Assembly: GCF_044324875.1 (NCBI RefSeq)
Contig: NZ_CP172185.1
DNA: 64,000 nucleotides
Reading direction: 5' to 3' (one strand)
Source of the DNA: Escherichia coli
GTDB lineage: Bacteria; Pseudomonadota; Gammaproteobacteria; Enterobacterales; Enterobacteriaceae
The translations under genes were made by a program, and so were the position numbers. The notes beneath the pieces were generated by a model. That model did no database searches and had not been told where the DNA came from. It saw only the letters and a list, made by a program, of their open reading frames with translations. Position 1 is the first letter of the stretch. Every line of letters begins with the position of its first letter. This document shows, in pieces, positions 55,503-61,319 of the stretch.

Positions 55503-56645
<1,143 letters not shown>

Positions 56646-56756: not shown

Positions 56757-57812
56757 ATGGAAATAAGCTTTACCCGCGTGGCACTGCTGGCTGCCGCGCT
56801 CTTCTTTGTTGGTTGCGATCAAAAACCACAACCCGCCAAAACCCACGCTACTGAAGTTACCGTTCTTGAAGGCAAAACCATGGGTACCTTCTGGCGTGCC
56901 AGCATTCCGGGCATTGACGCCAAACGCAGTACCGAACTTAAAGAAAAGATTCAGACCCAGCTGGACGCTGACGATCAGCTGCTTTCGACCTATAAAAAAG
57001 ATTCCGCGCTGATGCGATTTAACGACTCGCAAAGTTTATCGCCGTGGCCGGTAAGTGAAGCGATGGCCGATATCGTCACTACCTCGCTGCGCATTGGCGC
57101 AAGGACCGATGGTGCGATGGATATAACCGTCGGGCCGCTGGTGAATCTGTGGGGCTTTGGCCCGGAACAACAGCCGGTTCAAATTCCGAGCCAGGAACAA
57201 ATTGATGCGATGAAAGCCAAAACCGGCTTACAGCACCTGACGGTCATTAATCAGTCGCATCAGCAATATCTGCAAAAAGACCTGCCGGATTTATATGTCG
57301 ATCTCTCTACCGTCGGTGAAGGTTATGCGGCGGATCACCTGGCACGCTTGATAGAGCAGGAAGGGATTTCCCGCTATCTGGTGTCGGTGGGCGGCGCGCT
57401 GAACAGCCGTGGTATGAACGGTGAAGGCCAGCCGTGGCGGGTAGCGATTCAAAAACCAACCGATAAAGAAAACGCAGTTCAGGCCGTGGTGGATATCAAC
57501 GGTCATGGCATTAGCACCTCTGGCAGCTACCGTAACTATTACGAACTGGATGGCAAACGTCTTTCTCATGTTATCGATCCGCAAACCGGGCGTCCCATCG
57601 AACACAATCTGGTATCCGTGACGGTGATTGCCCCGACGGCGCTGGTAGCCGATGCCTGGGATACTGGCTTGATGGTACTGGGGCCGGAGAAAGCCAAAGA
57701 GGTTGTTCGTCGGGAAGGGCTGGCGGTTTATATGATCACCAAAGAGGGCGATAGTTTTAAAACCTGGATGTCGCCGCAGTTTAAAAGCTTCCTTATCAGC
57801 GAAAAAAATTAA
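56757..57812 (+). CDS. apbE: FAD:protein FMN transferase (ApbE/Ftp) lipoprotein
   Basis: 351-aa ORF; lipobox-like FFVGC in the signal peptide; ApbE-family sequence. Confidence 0.85.
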   Translation: MEISFTRVALLAAALFFVGCDQKPQPAKTHATEVTVLEGKTMGTFWRASIPGIDAKRSTELKEKIQTQLDADDQLLSTYKKDSALMRFNDSQSLSPWPVSEAMADIVTTSLRIGARTDGAMDITVGPLVNLWGFGPEQQPVQIPSQEQIDAMKAKTGLQHLTVINQSHQQYLQKDLPDLYVDLSTVGEGYAADHLARLIEQEGISRYLVSVGGALNSRGMNGEGQPWRVAIQKPTDKENAVQAVVDINGHGISTSGSYRNYYELDGKRLSHVIDPQTGRPIEHNLVSVTVIAPTALVADAWDTGLMVLGPEKAKEVVRREGLAVYMITKEGDSFKTWMSPQFKSFLISEKN

Positions 57813-57818
57813 AGCGCA
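57803..57818 (+). promoter_or_regulatory. Ada box (AAANNAAAGCGCA) of the ada-alkB promoter
   Basis: aaaaaaattaaagcgca overlaps the apbE stop codon, about 70 bp upstream of the ada ATG. Confidence 0.55.
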
Positions 57819-57885
57819 AGATTGTTGGTTTTTGCGCGATGGTGACCGGGCAGACTAAAGGCTATCCTTAACCAGGGAGCTGATT

Positions 57886-58950
57886 ATGAAAAACGCCACA
57901 TGCTTAACTGACGATCAACGCTGGCAATCTGTCTTAGCCCGCGACCCGAATGCCGACGGCGAATTCGTTTTCGCCGTGCGCACCACAGGCATCTTTTGCC
58001 GTCCGTCTTGCCGCGCCAGACATGCTTTGCGGGAAAACGTCTCCTTCTACGCAAATGCCAGTGAGGCACTCACCGCCGGATTTCGCCCCTGCAAACGCTG
58101 CCAACCCGATAAAGCCAATGCCCAGCAACATCGGTTGGATAAAATCACCCACGCCTGCCGACTGCTGGAACAGGAAACGCCTGTAACGCTGGAAACCTTA
58201 GCCGACCAGGTGGCGATGAGCCCGTTCCATCTGCATCGGTTGTTTAAAGCGACTACCGGAATGACGCCGAAAGCCTGGCAACAGGCCTGGCGCGCTCGCC
58301 GTTTGCGCGAATCGCTGGCGAAAGGGGAGAGCGTGACTACATCTATTCTTAACGCCGGATTTCCCGACAGCAGCAGTTACTACCGCAAAGCCGACGAAAC
58401 GCTGGGCATGACGGCTAAACAATTCCGTCACGGTGGCGAAAATCTGGCGGTGCGTTACGCGCTGGCTGATTGTGAGCTGGGCCGTTGCCTGGTGGCAGAA
58501 AGCGAGCGGGGGATTTGCGCGATATTGCTGGGCGATGATGACGCGACATTAATCAGCGAGTTGCAGCAGATGTTTCCCGCTGCCGACAACGCGCCTGCCG
58601 ATTTGACGTTTCAACAACATGTGCGTGAAGTGATCGCCAGCCTCAATCAACGCGATACGCCGCTGACGTTACCGCTGGACATTCGCGGCACTGCTTTTCA
58701 GCAACAAGTCTGGCAGGCACTGCGCACGATACCTTGCGGTGAAACCGTCAGTTATCAGCAACTGGCGAACGCCATCGGCAAACCGAAAGCGGTACGGGCC
58801 GTTGCCAGCGCCTGTGCCGCCAACAAGCTGGCTATCATAATACCCTGTCATCGGGTGGTCCGTGGTGATGGCACACTTTCCGGTTACCGCTGGGGCGTGT
58901 CGCGTAAAGCGCAACTGCTGCGCCGCGAAGCTGAGAATGAGGAGAGGTAA
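57886..58950 (+). CDS. ada: Ada: O6-methylguanine-DNA methyltransferase / AraC-type transcriptional activator
   Basis: 354-aa ORF with N-terminal Zn-Cys cluster (CRPSCRARH...CKRC), AraC HTH and C-terminal PCHRV active site. Confidence 0.9.
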   Translation: MKNATCLTDDQRWQSVLARDPNADGEFVFAVRTTGIFCRPSCRARHALRENVSFYANASEALTAGFRPCKRCQPDKANAQQHRLDKITHACRLLEQETPVTLETLADQVAMSPFHLHRLFKATTGMTPKAWQQAWRARRLRESLAKGESVTTSILNAGFPDSSSYYRKADETLGMTAKQFRHGGENLAVRYALADCELGRCLVAESERGICAILLGDDDATLISELQQMFPAADNAPADLTFQQHVREVIASLNQRDTPLTLPLDIRGTAFQQQVWQALRTIPCGETVSYQQLANAIGKPKAVRAVASACAANKLAIIIPCHRVVRGDGTLSGYRWGVSRKAQLLRREAENEER

Positions 58951-59600
58951 TGTTGGATCTGTTTGCCGATGCTGAACCGTGGCAAGAGCCACTGGCGGCT
59001 GGTGCGGTAATTTTACGGCGTTTTGCTTTTAACGCTGCGGAGCAACTGATCCGCGATATTAATGACGTTGCCAGCCAGTCGCCGTTTCGCCAGATGGTCA
59101 CCCCCGGCGGATATACCATGTCGGTGGCGATGACCAACAGTGGGCATCTGGGCTGGACGACCCATCGGCAAGGTTATCTCTATTCGCCCATTGATCCGCA
59201 AACAAATAAACCGTGGCCCGCCATGCCACAAAGCTTTCATGATTTATGTCAACGTGCGGCTACGGCGGCGGGCTATCCAGATTTCCAGCCAGATGCTTGT
59301 CTTATCAACCGCTACGCTCCTGGCGCGAAACTGTCGCTGCATCAGGATAAAGACGAACCGGATCTGCGCGCGCCGATTGTTTCTGTTTCTCTGGGCTTAC
59401 CCGCAATTTTTCAATTTGGCGGCCTGAAACGAAATGATCCGCTAAAACGTTTGTTGTTGGAACATGGCGATGTGGTGGTATGGGGCGGTGAATCGCGGCT
59501 GTTTTATCATGGCATTCAACCGTTGAAAGCGGGGTTTCATCCACTCACCACCGACTGCCGCTACAACCTGACATTCCGTCAGGCAGGTAAAAAAGAATAA
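58950..59600 (+). CDS. alkB: AlkB Fe(II)/2-oxoglutarate-dependent DNA/RNA demethylase
   Basis: 216-aa ORF MLDLFADAEPWQEPLAAGAVILRRFA...; start overlaps the ada stop (TAATG). Confidence 0.9.
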   Translation: MLDLFADAEPWQEPLAAGAVILRRFAFNAAEQLIRDINDVASQSPFRQMVTPGGYTMSVAMTNSGHLGWTTHRQGYLYSPIDPQTNKPWPAMPQSFHDLCQRAATAAGYPDFQPDACLINRYAPGAKLSLHQDKDEPDLRAPIVSVSLGLPAIFQFGGLKRNDPLKRLLLEHGDVVVWGGESRLFYHGIQPLKAGFHPLTTDCRYNLTFRQAGKKE

Positions 59601-59675
59601 AAATAAGAATTATTATTGCTGTGCGCGCGAAGATGTTTAAACTGCGGGCTGTAATTCATTGTCCGGGTTTTCTGC

Positions 59676-61319
59676 ATGGAACTTCTTGTACTTGTCTGGC
59701 GGCAGTATCGCTGGCCATTTATCAGTGTGATGGCGCTAAGCCTCGCCAGTGCGGCTTTAGGCATTGGCTTAATTGCTTTTATCAATCAGCGCCTTATCGA
59801 AACGGCGGATACCAGTCTGCTGGTGTTGCCGGAGTTTCTGGGATTATTGCTGCTGTTGATGGCAGTCACTCTCGGATCGCAACTGGCGCTCACCACTTTG
59901 GGGCATCACTTCGTTTACCGACTGCGTAGTGAATTTATCAAGCGGATTCTCGATACTCACGTCGAGCGCATTGAACAACTCGGTAGCGCCTCGTTGCTGG
60001 CGGGATTAACCAGCGATGTGCGCAATATCACCATTGCTTTTGTGCGTCTGCCGGAACTGGTGCAGGGGATCATCCTCACTATCGGTTCCGCGGCGTACTT
60101 GTGGATGCTGTCGGGCAAAATGTTGCTGGTAACGGCTATCTGGATGGCAGTCACCATCTGGGGCGGTTTTATACTGGTGGCGCGGGTGTACAAACATATG
60201 GCGACCCTGCGTGAAACCGAAGATAAGCTGTACACGGATTTTCAAACCGTACTCGAAGGGCGCAAAGAGCTGACTCTGAACCGTGAACGCGCCGAGTATG
60301 TGTTTAACAACCTCTACATTCCTGATGCGCAAGAGTATCGCCATCATATTATCCGCGCAGACACCTTCCATCTTAGTGCCGTGAACTGGTCAAACATCAT
60401 GATGCTGGGCGCAATCGGCCTGGTGTTCTGGATGGCGAACAGTCTCGGTTGGGCTGATACCAACGTTGCCGCGACCTATTCGTTGACGCTGTTATTCCTG
60501 CGTACGCCGCTGCTTTCGGCGGTTGGCGCATTACCGACGCTGCTGACGGCGCAGGTGGCGTTTAACAAGCTGAACAAATTCGCGCTCGCACCTTTCAAAG
60601 CAGAGTTTCCACGCCCGCAGGCGTTTCCCAACTGGCAAACGCTGGAGCTGCGTAACGTGACGTTTGCTTATCAGGATAATGCGTTTTCCGTTGGGCCGAT
60701 TAACCTCACCATTAAACGTGGCGAGCTGCTGTTTCTGATTGGTGGCAACGGTAGTGGAAAATCGACGCTGGCGATGTTGCTGACGGGCTTGTATCAGCCA
60801 CAAAGCGGCGAAATCTTGCTGGATGGCAAACCTGTCAGCGGCGAACAACCGGAAGATTATCGCAAACTGTTTTCGGCAGTGTTTACCGATGTCTGGCTGT
60901 TCGATCAACTGCTGGGGCCGGAGGGTCAACCCGCTAACCCGCAACTGATTGAGAAGTGGCTGGCGCAACTGAAAATGGCTCATAAGCTTGAGTTAAGTAA
61001 CGGGCGTATTGTTAACCTGAAGTTATCGAAAGGGCAGAAAAAACGCGTGGCGCTGTTGCTGGCGCTGGCAGAAGAACGCGATATTATCCTGCTGGATGAA
61101 TGGGCGGCGGATCAGGACCCACACTTCCGTCGTGAGTTTTATCAGGTGCTGCTGCCGCTGATGCAGGAGATGGGTAAAACGATTTTCGCCATCAGTCATG
61201 ATGATCATTACTTTATCCACGCTGACCGCCTGCTGGAAATGCGCAACGGGCTACTTAGCGAGCTGACAGGCGAAGAGCGCGATGCTGCTTCGCGTGATGC
61301 CGTTGCCCGGACGGCATAA
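59676..61319 (+). CDS. yojI: ABC transporter, fused permease/ATPase (YojI, microcin J25 efflux type)
   Basis: 547-aa ORF with N-terminal TM domain and C-terminal NBD (Walker [10 protein letters not shown], signature LSKGQKKR, Walker B ILLDE). Confidence 0.85.

Follow-up and report, generated by a model that had tools for sequence, protein, structure and literature searches.

The ada promoter and the ada-alkB operon of Escherichia coli K-12 were reportedly described by Teo et al. 1986, Nakabeppu and Sekiguchi 1986 and Kondo et al. 1986 (J Biol Chem 261:15772), and the primary papers on footprinting and start-site mapping at the ada promoter are said to be Teo 1986, Nakabeppu and Sekiguchi 1986, Sakumi and Sekiguchi 1989, and Landini and Volkert 1995. 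The published footprint of methylated Ada spans about -63 to -31, and the older 13-mer consensus for the Ada box is AAANNAAAGCGCA. Sequences published as bound by Ada are the octamer AAAGCGCA and AAT(N6)GCAA (PMC3788762, PMC4437013). In a GFP reporter, both MMS and MNNG strongly induced the -100 to -1 fragment of E. coli ada (PMC3788762), and ada and alkB have been described as one operon (PMC8643705, PMC6813329, PMC6505713). The K-12 literature is our source for Ada binding to the motif, for the inducibility of the -100 to -1 fragment, and for the co-transcription of ada and alkB.

We analyzed this locus in a window comprising the whole of a 64,000-nucleotide stretch of DNA (contig NZ_CP172185.1) from an Escherichia strain with 97% identity to K-12 across the stretch. 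The window shares with K-12 the gene order ompC-apbE-ada-alkB-yojI, the Ada box AATTAAAGCGCAA, the TAATG junction between ada and alkB, and the GAGGAG Shine-Dalgarno sequence of alkB. The two differ by two substitutions in the apbE-ada spacer and a few amino-acid changes, none of which touches the Ada box or the junction.

More distant systems share some of these features. The Salmonella enterica ada promoter has been given as GAATTAAAACGCA (Hakura et al. 1991, cited in PMC3788762), and the S. enterica loci (L025 and L026) have the same gene order apbE-ada-alkB, with the Ada box holding an unchanged register relative to the apbE end (AAT TAA AACGCAAG). However, a spacer base differs (AACGCAA compared to AGCGCAA in the window), and ada ends in TAG with alkB starting 2 nt later (GAGGAG TAG CG ATG), leaving no overlap. 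Pseudomonas putida uses the same Ada box logic (ATT-N6-GCAA) and conserves the Ada contact residues, but its Ada drives alkA-ada, while a constitutive, non-inducible alkB lies about 3 Mb away (PMC3788762). Because alkB is separate in P. putida, the joining of ada and alkB into one operon is lineage-specific. The other Ada-dependent promoters of E. coli, those of aidB and alkA, are found at separate loci outside the window; their sites lie at different distances from the start of transcription, the action of RNA polymerase and Ada at alkA is different, and the affinity of Ada for the ada site is about 10-fold higher (PMC4437013).

Results

All three genes of interest lie on the plus strand. The apbE (ftp) coding sequence occupies positions 56757-57812, as judged by its open reading frame, a Pfam ApbE match (E = 2.5e-83) and the RefSeq annotation of homologous loci. 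It is followed by ada at 57886-58950, encoding 354 aa with Pfam Ada_Zn_binding, HTH_AraC and O6-methylguanine-methyltransferase (MGMT) domains, and by alkB at 58950-59600, encoding a 216-aa 2OG-Fe(II) oxygenase (Pfam 2OG-FeII_Oxy_2, E = 4.6e-59). The Pfam domains and the RefSeq annotation of homologous loci thus bear out the gene names proposed in the first-pass annotation. The segment is present, with RefSeq-annotated apbE, ada and alkB, in 5421 of 5426 complete E. coli genomes.

The Ada protein retains the Zn-Cys4 residues C38, C42, C69 and C72, and its methyl-acceptor residues are all intact, including C321 of the PCHR motif. The contacts to the A box (R45 and R71) and the B box (F114, H115 and R118), as assigned in PMC3788762, are likewise all found. 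Ada and AlkB are each 98.6% identical to their K-12 counterparts (5 and 3 amino-acid differences, respectively), and ApbE differs from K-12 ApbE at 6 residues.

We compared the locus with those of 80 other Enterobacteriaceae species (83 loci), 78 loci being used for phylogenetic footprinting. Gene order was invariant in these species, and in 80 of 80 species loci an AlkB 2OG-Fe(II) dioxygenase comes directly after a full-length bifunctional Ada on the same strand. The tight packing of the operon against its neighbor, which had been remarked on from the window alone, is a feature conserved across the Enterobacteriaceae. Taken together, these data make it very probable that the locus is the canonical, well-studied Escherichia ada-alkB adaptive-response (alkylation-repair) operon, to which the methylated-Ada promoter model and the alkB start model set out below would apply.

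The Ada box, AAT-N6-GCAA, is located at 57807-57819 on the plus strand. It was assigned from the published consensus, from conservation and from its identity over all 13 nucleotides to the K-12 promoter, and no other match to AAT-N6-GCAA occurs within 100 bp upstream of the ada start codon. Its A box, AAT (57807-57809), is the last sense codon of apbE, Asn351; the spacer TAAAGC (57810-57815) includes the apbE stop codon TAA (57810-57812), and the B box, GCAA, lies at 57816-57819. The octamer AAAGCGCA is read at 57811-57818, within a match to the older consensus, AAATTAAAGCGCA, at 57806-57818. An Ada-box-like motif over the last apbE codons and stop had been reported previously as the 17-mer AAAAAAATTAAAGCGCA. 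This 17-mer occurs once in the window, at 57802-57818, and since the apbE frame ends at 57812, it runs across the stop codon and overlaps the final three sense codons; the overlap thus stands, although the start given for it, 57803, was one base late.

The spacer between apbE and ada is 73 nt long, as in K-12, and differs from K-12 at 57837 (T>C) and 57854 (C>A). Directly downstream of the Ada box is the block GATTGTTGGTTTTT (57820-57833, plus strand; majority form GATTGCGGGTTTTT), most columns of which are at least 90% conserved in the phylogenetic footprint. The block lies between the Ada box and the variable part of the spacer. Its position is where a -35 element and RNA polymerase contacts would be expected, and it may serve such a role, although we found no good -35 hexamer within 57820-57833. 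A -10-like hexamer, CAGACT, follows at 57851-57856 on the plus strand (CAGCCT in K-12 and B); its C51, A52 and T56 each reach at least 90% conservation, with variation at the flanking positions. The Shine-Dalgarno sequence of ada, AGGGAG (57874-57879, plus strand), is positioned 6 nt upstream of the ATG and has a GGAG core with at least 90% conservation. In K-12, a tiling-array segment boundary maps 19 nt upstream of the ada ATG (~57867 in the window), and we infer that ada transcription starts at about 57862-57867, ~20-24 nt upstream of the ATG. Judged from this boundary and the -10-like hexamer, the Ada box would fall at roughly -60 to -44. A sigma-70 consensus scan detected no promoter upstream of ada, but this is uninformative regarding the start site, since such a result is expected for an activator-dependent promoter. 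A hairpin, GCGCAAGA...UUUUGCGC (57814-57837), was considered as an apbE terminator and rejected, as it has no U-tail, is not significantly stable (z = -0.69), is not conserved outside Escherichia and was missed by the terminator scan.

In the promoter model, methylated Ada would bind as a monomer to the A box (57807-57809) and B box (57816-57819) and would recruit RNA polymerase to a promoter whose -35 region is poor and whose -10 element, CAGACT, is weak. Promoter and leader fill the 73-nt spacer, and the operator therefore reaches into the 3' end of apbE, such that the final sense codon of apbE and its stop double as operator bases.

At the other end of ada, the stop codon TAA (58948-58950) and the alkB ATG (58950-58952) form a TAATG overlap (58948-58952, plus strand) in which the single base 58950 is common to both open reading frames. 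The overlap had been noticed before; it agrees with the reading frames and is conserved, with TAATG or TGATG kept in 75 of the 83 loci and most of the others starting within 2 nt. The alkB Shine-Dalgarno sequence, GAGGAG (58939-58944, plus strand), lies in the last ada codons (Glu-Glu), its AGGAG ending 5 nt before the alkB ATG. In 80 of 82 loci, a Shine-Dalgarno match of at least 4 nt precedes the alkB start by 2-8 nt, with a spacing of 4-6 nt in 71, and it stayed conserved while the C-terminal residues of Ada varied. The ribosome-binding site of alkB appears to dictate the C-terminal Glu-Glu of Ada. A scan of the junction identified no promoter-like or terminator-like site between ada and alkB.

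The overlap had also been taken to imply that alkB translation is coupled to that of ada. A single mRNA would carry both genes, and because the alkB ATG shares a base with the ada stop and lies 5 nt past the GAGGAG sequence, ribosomes that terminate on ada could reinitiate on alkB; free ribosomes probably also start alkB directly. Coupling is plausible but unproven, and its degree is something that we can only infer. It is favored by the conserved one-base overlap, by the conserved Shine-Dalgarno sequence in the ada 3' end and by precedent in other gene pairs. Like the coupled overlapping pairs described previously (Huber et al. 2019, PMC6728339; PMC10666635), ada-alkB has a -1 stop/start overlap (TGATG class) and a Shine-Dalgarno sequence in the 3' end of the upstream gene. 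In contrast, the pairs of Huber et al. had 4-nt overlaps and did not include ada-alkB (PMC6728339), and Ada and AlkB are not subunits of one complex. Our literature search found no paper testing coupling for ada-alkB.

Alternatively, alkB could be translated independently of ada by de novo initiation at its own Shine-Dalgarno sequence, with the overlap reflecting mere genome compaction; we rate this possibility somewhat below an even chance. The strong, conserved alkB Shine-Dalgarno sequence (AGGAG or AGGAGG at 4-6 nt spacing) is in line with such initiation, and no RNA structure was found that would tie the alkB start to an upstream ribosome: the junction was no more structured than shuffled sequences (MFE z = -0.48), and a consensus fold of 14 species reached -1.5 kcal/mol with no pairs at the Shine-Dalgarno sequence or AUG and no covariation. 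Coupling through the unmasking of a structured ribosome-binding site was rejected, since no stable or conserved structure sequesters the alkB Shine-Dalgarno sequence or start. Given this strong signal and the lack of significant or conserved masking structure, coupling need not be required, and independent initiation is just as possible as reinitiation. The basal level of AlkB, about 0.2 per cell, is below that of Ada, about 1 per cell (PMC8643705), indicating that output from the two genes is not 1:1, and short overlaps are common: of the 30 co-directional gene pairs within the 64 kb, 3 have a one-base overlap and 7 have an overlap of one or four bases. However, the exact -1 register persists in 75 of 83 loci despite variation in the length and sequence of the Ada tail and switching between TAA and TGA, and loci with a TAG stop in ada have a gap of just 2 nt. 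Of the five overlapping E. coli gene pairs tested experimentally, four were strictly coupled and one, bioBF, initiated de novo (PMC6728339).

We also examined the apbE end across the comparison set. The motif AAT-TAA-AnnGCAAG was found in register with the end of apbE in about 80 of the 83 loci, and the Ada box columns were at least 90% conserved among the 78 footprinted loci. The terminal Asn codon of apbE was AAT in all 72 cases, whereas six other conserved apbE Asn columns held 166 AAT versus 269 AAC codons (38% AAT). The apbE stop was TAA in 73 of 73 loci, while the ada stop in the same loci was TAA in 49, TGA in 20 and TAG in 4. Synonymous positions at the apbE end are under selection.

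This conservation could in principle be due to ApbE itself, through its C-terminal residue or the efficiency of termination, with the A-box match being incidental. The C-terminal Asn is indeed invariant in 72 of 73 loci, TAA is the commonest and most efficient enterobacterial stop codon, and apbE also ends AAT TAA in a syntenic outgroup (L096) that carries porin-apbE without ada downstream. Nevertheless, we consider this explanation quite improbable. The synonymous codon AAC is never used at the terminal Asn, yet it is the majority codon at the six other conserved Asn positions, and the non-coding bases directly downstream (AnnGCAAGATTG) are conserved to an equal degree. The whole motif also remains intact in one locus where apbE stops 6 nt earlier (L077) and in another where apbE is disrupted (L082). 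Furthermore, the ApbE tail (residues 326-351) falls outside the Pfam ApbE domain, which covers residues 42-325, and the residues preceding the final Asn vary. Two of the three outgroup apbE genes end otherwise (CGA TGA and AAA TAG); the three usable loci, obtained from a 50%-representative search, are too few to decide the matter but agree with constraint by the operator. The best 120 ApbE homologues contained only close Enterobacteriaceae relatives and no outgroups.

It is hardly credible that the motif overlapping the apbE stop arose by chance and that Ada acts on this operon from another site, such as the exact AAAGCGCAA inside ada (at 58906-58914 and 36 nt before the alkB start codon) driving alkB separately: although AAAGCGCA occurs 7 times in the window versus 4.8 expected and two Ada-box-like fragments have been noted upstream of E. 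coli alkB (PMC3788762), the upstream copy is identical to the K-12 ada promoter, is conserved in 80 species and is the only full AAT-N6-GCAA in the inducible -100 to -1 fragment. As an internal Ada site or alkB promoter, the 58906-58914 copy was rejected, since it lacks an A box, occurs in just 24 of the 82 loci, shows variation at synonymous positions and is lost in the closest relative, GMF054. Motif counts alone reveal no enrichment above chance in the window, with AAT-N6-GCAA found 10 times compared to 15.9 expected. What marks the copy at 57807-57819 as meaningful is where it lies, that it is identical to the K-12 promoter, and that 80 other species conserve it.

Discussion

The operon, the Ada box, the overlap and their regulation are already known and are textbook material, and the compact layout is an ordinary one conserved across enteric bacteria. 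To this, the in-register conservation of the apbE end makes only a small addition. A more far-reaching reading would hold that the apbE 3' end and the Ada operator are an anciently fixed dual-use sequence, with AAT-TAA frozen across the Enterobacteriaceae by selection for Ada binding, and that, as apbE lacks a terminator, transcripts running on from it into ada-alkB may provide some of the basal Ada (~1 molecule per cell) that seeds the stochastic adaptive response. We regard this combined proposal as speculative and, on balance, unlikely.

Few features of bacterial operons are as common as short stop/start overlaps, and the locus has little importance past its correct annotation. There are nonetheless practical consequences, as deleting apbE or tagging it C-terminally would disturb the ada promoter, and a C-terminal tag on ada would disturb the alkB translation start. 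The locus also offers a clean case of a regulatory sequence embedded in a coding sequence, in which an operator limits the synonymous and stop-codon choice of the neighboring gene across the family.

Organization and identity of the ada-alkB locus

The ORF list and the raw sequence place five co-directional genes on the + strand of this part of the window: a porin gene (55518-56645), apbE (56757-57812; Pfam ApbE), ada (57886-58950; Pfam Ada_Zn_binding, HTH_AraC, and O6-methylguanine-methyltransferase), alkB (58950-59600; Pfam 2OG-Fe(II) oxygenase), and yojI (59676-61319; Pfam ABC-transporter domains). A 1.5-kb query across the Ada box and the ada/alkB junction matched 5421 of 5426 complete E. 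coli genomes, each annotated with apbE, ada, and alkB; identity was 97% to K-12 and reached a maximum of 99.5% to any genome. Relative to the K-12 ada-alkB operon, the spacer differs at two positions (57837 T>C and 57854 C>A) and the proteins by a few amino acids. All contact and methyl-acceptor residues of Ada are present. Sequence comparison identifies the locus as a natural allele of the K-12 operon, and its differences spare both the Ada box and the overlap features.

An Ada box in register with the end of apbE

The first-pass annotation had proposed that an Ada-box-like motif overlaps the last codons and stop of apbE, and this overlap was borne out, since the final sense codon of apbE (AAT) occupies 57807-57809 and its stop (TAA) 57810-57812. 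The 17-mer AAAAAAATTAAAGCGCA occurs only once in the window, at 57802-57818, and the start originally assigned to it, 57803, is one base too late. The published recognition sequence of Ada at its own promoter is AAAGCGCA, and the A and B boxes follow the pattern AAT-N6-GCAA, with R45 and R71 contacting the A box and F114, H115, and R118 contacting the B box (PMC3788762, PMC4437013). Identification of the motif as an Ada box agrees with these sequences: AATTAAAGCGCAA at 57807-57819 is the sole AAT-N6-GCAA in the 100 bp preceding the ada ATG and is the same as in the K-12 ada promoter. A fragment covering -100 to -1 of E. coli ada gave very strong GFP induction by MMS and MNNG (PMC3788762); this fragment takes in the final 27 nt of apbE. 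Ada-motif counts across the 64-kb window showed no excess over chance, so the case for the Ada box rests on its position, its identity to a characterised promoter, and its conservation.

An Ada-protein scan of a species-representative genome collection yielded 80 loci, with Ada identities from 97% down to 64%, that span Escherichia, Citrobacter, Salmonella, Kluyvera, Trabulsiella, Kosakonia, Enterobacter, Lelliottia, Leclercia, Klebsiella, Raoultella, and others; together with K-12, GMF054 (the closest relative), and the window itself, they make up a set of 83 sequences. The gene order apbE-ada-alkB was found in 80/80 loci, and AAT TAA A-n-n-GCAAG lies at the end of apbE in identical register in about 80 of the 83 sequences. 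The exceptions were loci L034, where CAT replaces AAT; L077, where the apbE stop falls 6 nt earlier and the complete AATTAAAGCGCAA is kept immediately after it; and L082, where apbE is disrupted and the motif is kept. When 78 spacers were compared column by column, conservation was at least 90% from about 57805 to 57833. A variable stretch comes next, and beyond it lie the conserved C57851, A57852, and T57856 of a -10-like hexamer and then the ada Shine-Dalgarno (SD).

These bases could be kept either by ApbE or by the operator. The terminal apbE Asn codon was AAT in 72/72 loci, compared with totals of 166 AAT and 269 AAC at six other conserved apbE Asn columns, and the apbE stop was TAA in 73/73 loci, compared with 49 TAA, 20 TGA, and 4 TAG for the ada stop in the same loci. 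In addition, the C-terminal tail of apbE lies outside the Pfam domain, and the residues preceding the final Asn are variable. We conclude that the AAT-TAA bases are fixed by the operator rather than by ApbE. Three outgroup apbE genes that lack ada downstream end in CGA-TGA, AAA-TAG, and AAT-TAA, which is consistent with a constraint arising from the Ada box, three being too few to decide. The AAT-TAA case is on the AT-rich outgroup contig L096 (2501-3592), which has the order gyrA-porin-apbE and no ada downstream and whose ApbE ends in Asn; the similarity of this gene end to an A box may predate the arrival of the ada promoter.

A 10-bp palindrome, GCAAGATTGC, has the B box as its left half in most Enterobacteriaceae; its E. 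coli counterpart is GCAAGATTGT, and a near-invariant GGGTTTTT comes after it (57816-57833 in the window, with equivalents in L009-L081). This block is conserved as strongly as the Ada box, and it might provide a -35 or alpha-CTD contact or act as an inverted second B box.

Core promoter, leader, and transcript boundaries

A sigma-70 consensus scan upstream of ada found no promoter. Conserved columns mark the -10-like hexamer CAGACT at 57851-57856, from which a start near 57862-57865 is predicted. K-12 and B, both laboratory strains, have CAGCCT, one step farther from TATAAT, whereas CAGACT was present in 8 of 10 sampled E. coli (all but K-12 and B) and in every other Escherichia species compared. 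Classic promoter studies may thus describe a slightly weaker ada promoter allele.

In a K-12 tiling-array supplement, the apbE segment ends at 2308447 (PMC6505713). Converted to the window via the NC_000913.3 annotation and a 1977-bp offset between genome versions, this end falls 19 nt upstream of the ada ATG, at about 57867. The offset is consistent with the position listed for the apbE/ompC intergenic region. From the hexamer and the tiling-array boundary, rather than by mapping, we infer that the Ada box lies at roughly -60 to -44. The published footprint of methylated Ada is reported to cover about -63 to -31.

No intrinsic terminator was found for apbE, and the 73-nt spacer (57813-57885) is wholly promoter and leader. 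Transcription could therefore run on from apbE into ada-alkB, which might add to basal Ada. The ada 5' leaders of L024 (Citrobacter sedlakii, about 2340-2500) and L081 (Klebsiella indica, about 2330-2500) hold unrelated inserts of about 155-160 bp, downstream of the -10 region and upstream of the SD. The spacers of these two loci measure 227 nt and 234 nt, respectively, compared with the usual length of about 72, and the Ada box is still at the apbE stop. Downstream, the interval from the alkB stop to the yojI start (59601-59675) contains no terminator-like site, and a single MNNG-induced transcript covers ada, alkB, and yojI (PMC6505713), so the microcin J25 efflux gene yojI may be co-induced through read-through.

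The ada/alkB junction and translational coupling

The proposed overlap of the ada stop with the alkB start was confirmed, with base 58950 common to the TAA (58948-58950) and the ATG (58950-58952). This one-base overlap was found in 75 of the 83 sequences (TAATG in 55, TGATG in 20); the other eight junctions comprise four 2-nt gaps (three TAG, one TGA), one direct abutment, one ATGA-type overlap, one 7-nt overlap, and one apparently frameshifted assembly. An alkB SD of at least 4 nt was present in 80/82 loci, most commonly AGGAG at 5 nt and AGGAGG or GGAGG at 4 nt, and is kept even though the C-terminal residues of Ada are diverse (NEER, GEER, REET, KEES, and others). The Glu-Glu close to the end of Ada is therefore probably imposed by the ribosome-binding site of alkB. 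A second exact AAAGCGCAA inside ada (58906-58914, Arg-Lys-Ala-Gln codons), 36 nt upstream of the alkB ATG, was considered as an internal Ada site; it has no A box, is conserved in only 24/82 loci, is lost in GMF054, and is probably a chance match.

Of the 30 co-directional neighbour pairs annotated across this 64 kb in the near-identical GMF054, three overlap by one base (yfaE/nrdB, atoA/atoD, and ada/alkB), four by four bases (glpC/glpB, yfaA/yfaT, atoE/atoA, and atoC/atoS), and one by 11 bases (glpB/glpA). Those other than ada/alkB lie in the window at about 20045, about 43960, and further gene junctions. Given these counts, and an overlap rate of about 15% among co-directional pairs in most prokaryotes (PMC6728339), the TAATG junction is a routine operon feature.

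The overlap had also been taken to imply that alkB translation is coupled to that of ada. The junction RNA did not exceed shuffled sequence in stability (z = -0.48), and neither the SD nor the AUG was structured in a 14-species consensus fold, which also lacked covariation; any coupling would therefore occur by termination-reinitiation rather than by the opening of a structured site. Ribosomes may also initiate directly at alkB. Among five overlapping E. coli gene pairs, four were strictly coupled and the fifth initiated de novo (Huber et al., PMC6728339). Per cell, the basal levels are about 0.2 molecules of AlkB and about 1 of Ada (PMC8643705). Our literature search for coupling tests on ada-alkB found no paper, and we consider coupling, as deduced from the junction, moderately likely but unproven.

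Conservation of a known operon layout

All sources consulted on ada and alkB treat them as one operon. Their overlapping stop and start were reportedly described already by Kondo et al. in 1986. What the first-pass annotation saw and how it read the locus both stand, with translational coupling as the one deduced element. The operon layout is already known, and the conservation analysis is a tidy illustration of it rather than a discovery. Comparison across Enterobacteriaceae shows that the Ada box keeps its in-register overlap with the terminal codon and stop of apbE, where synonymous positions are visibly under selection; the one-base ada/alkB overlap and its SD are likewise conserved across the family and visibly under selection.
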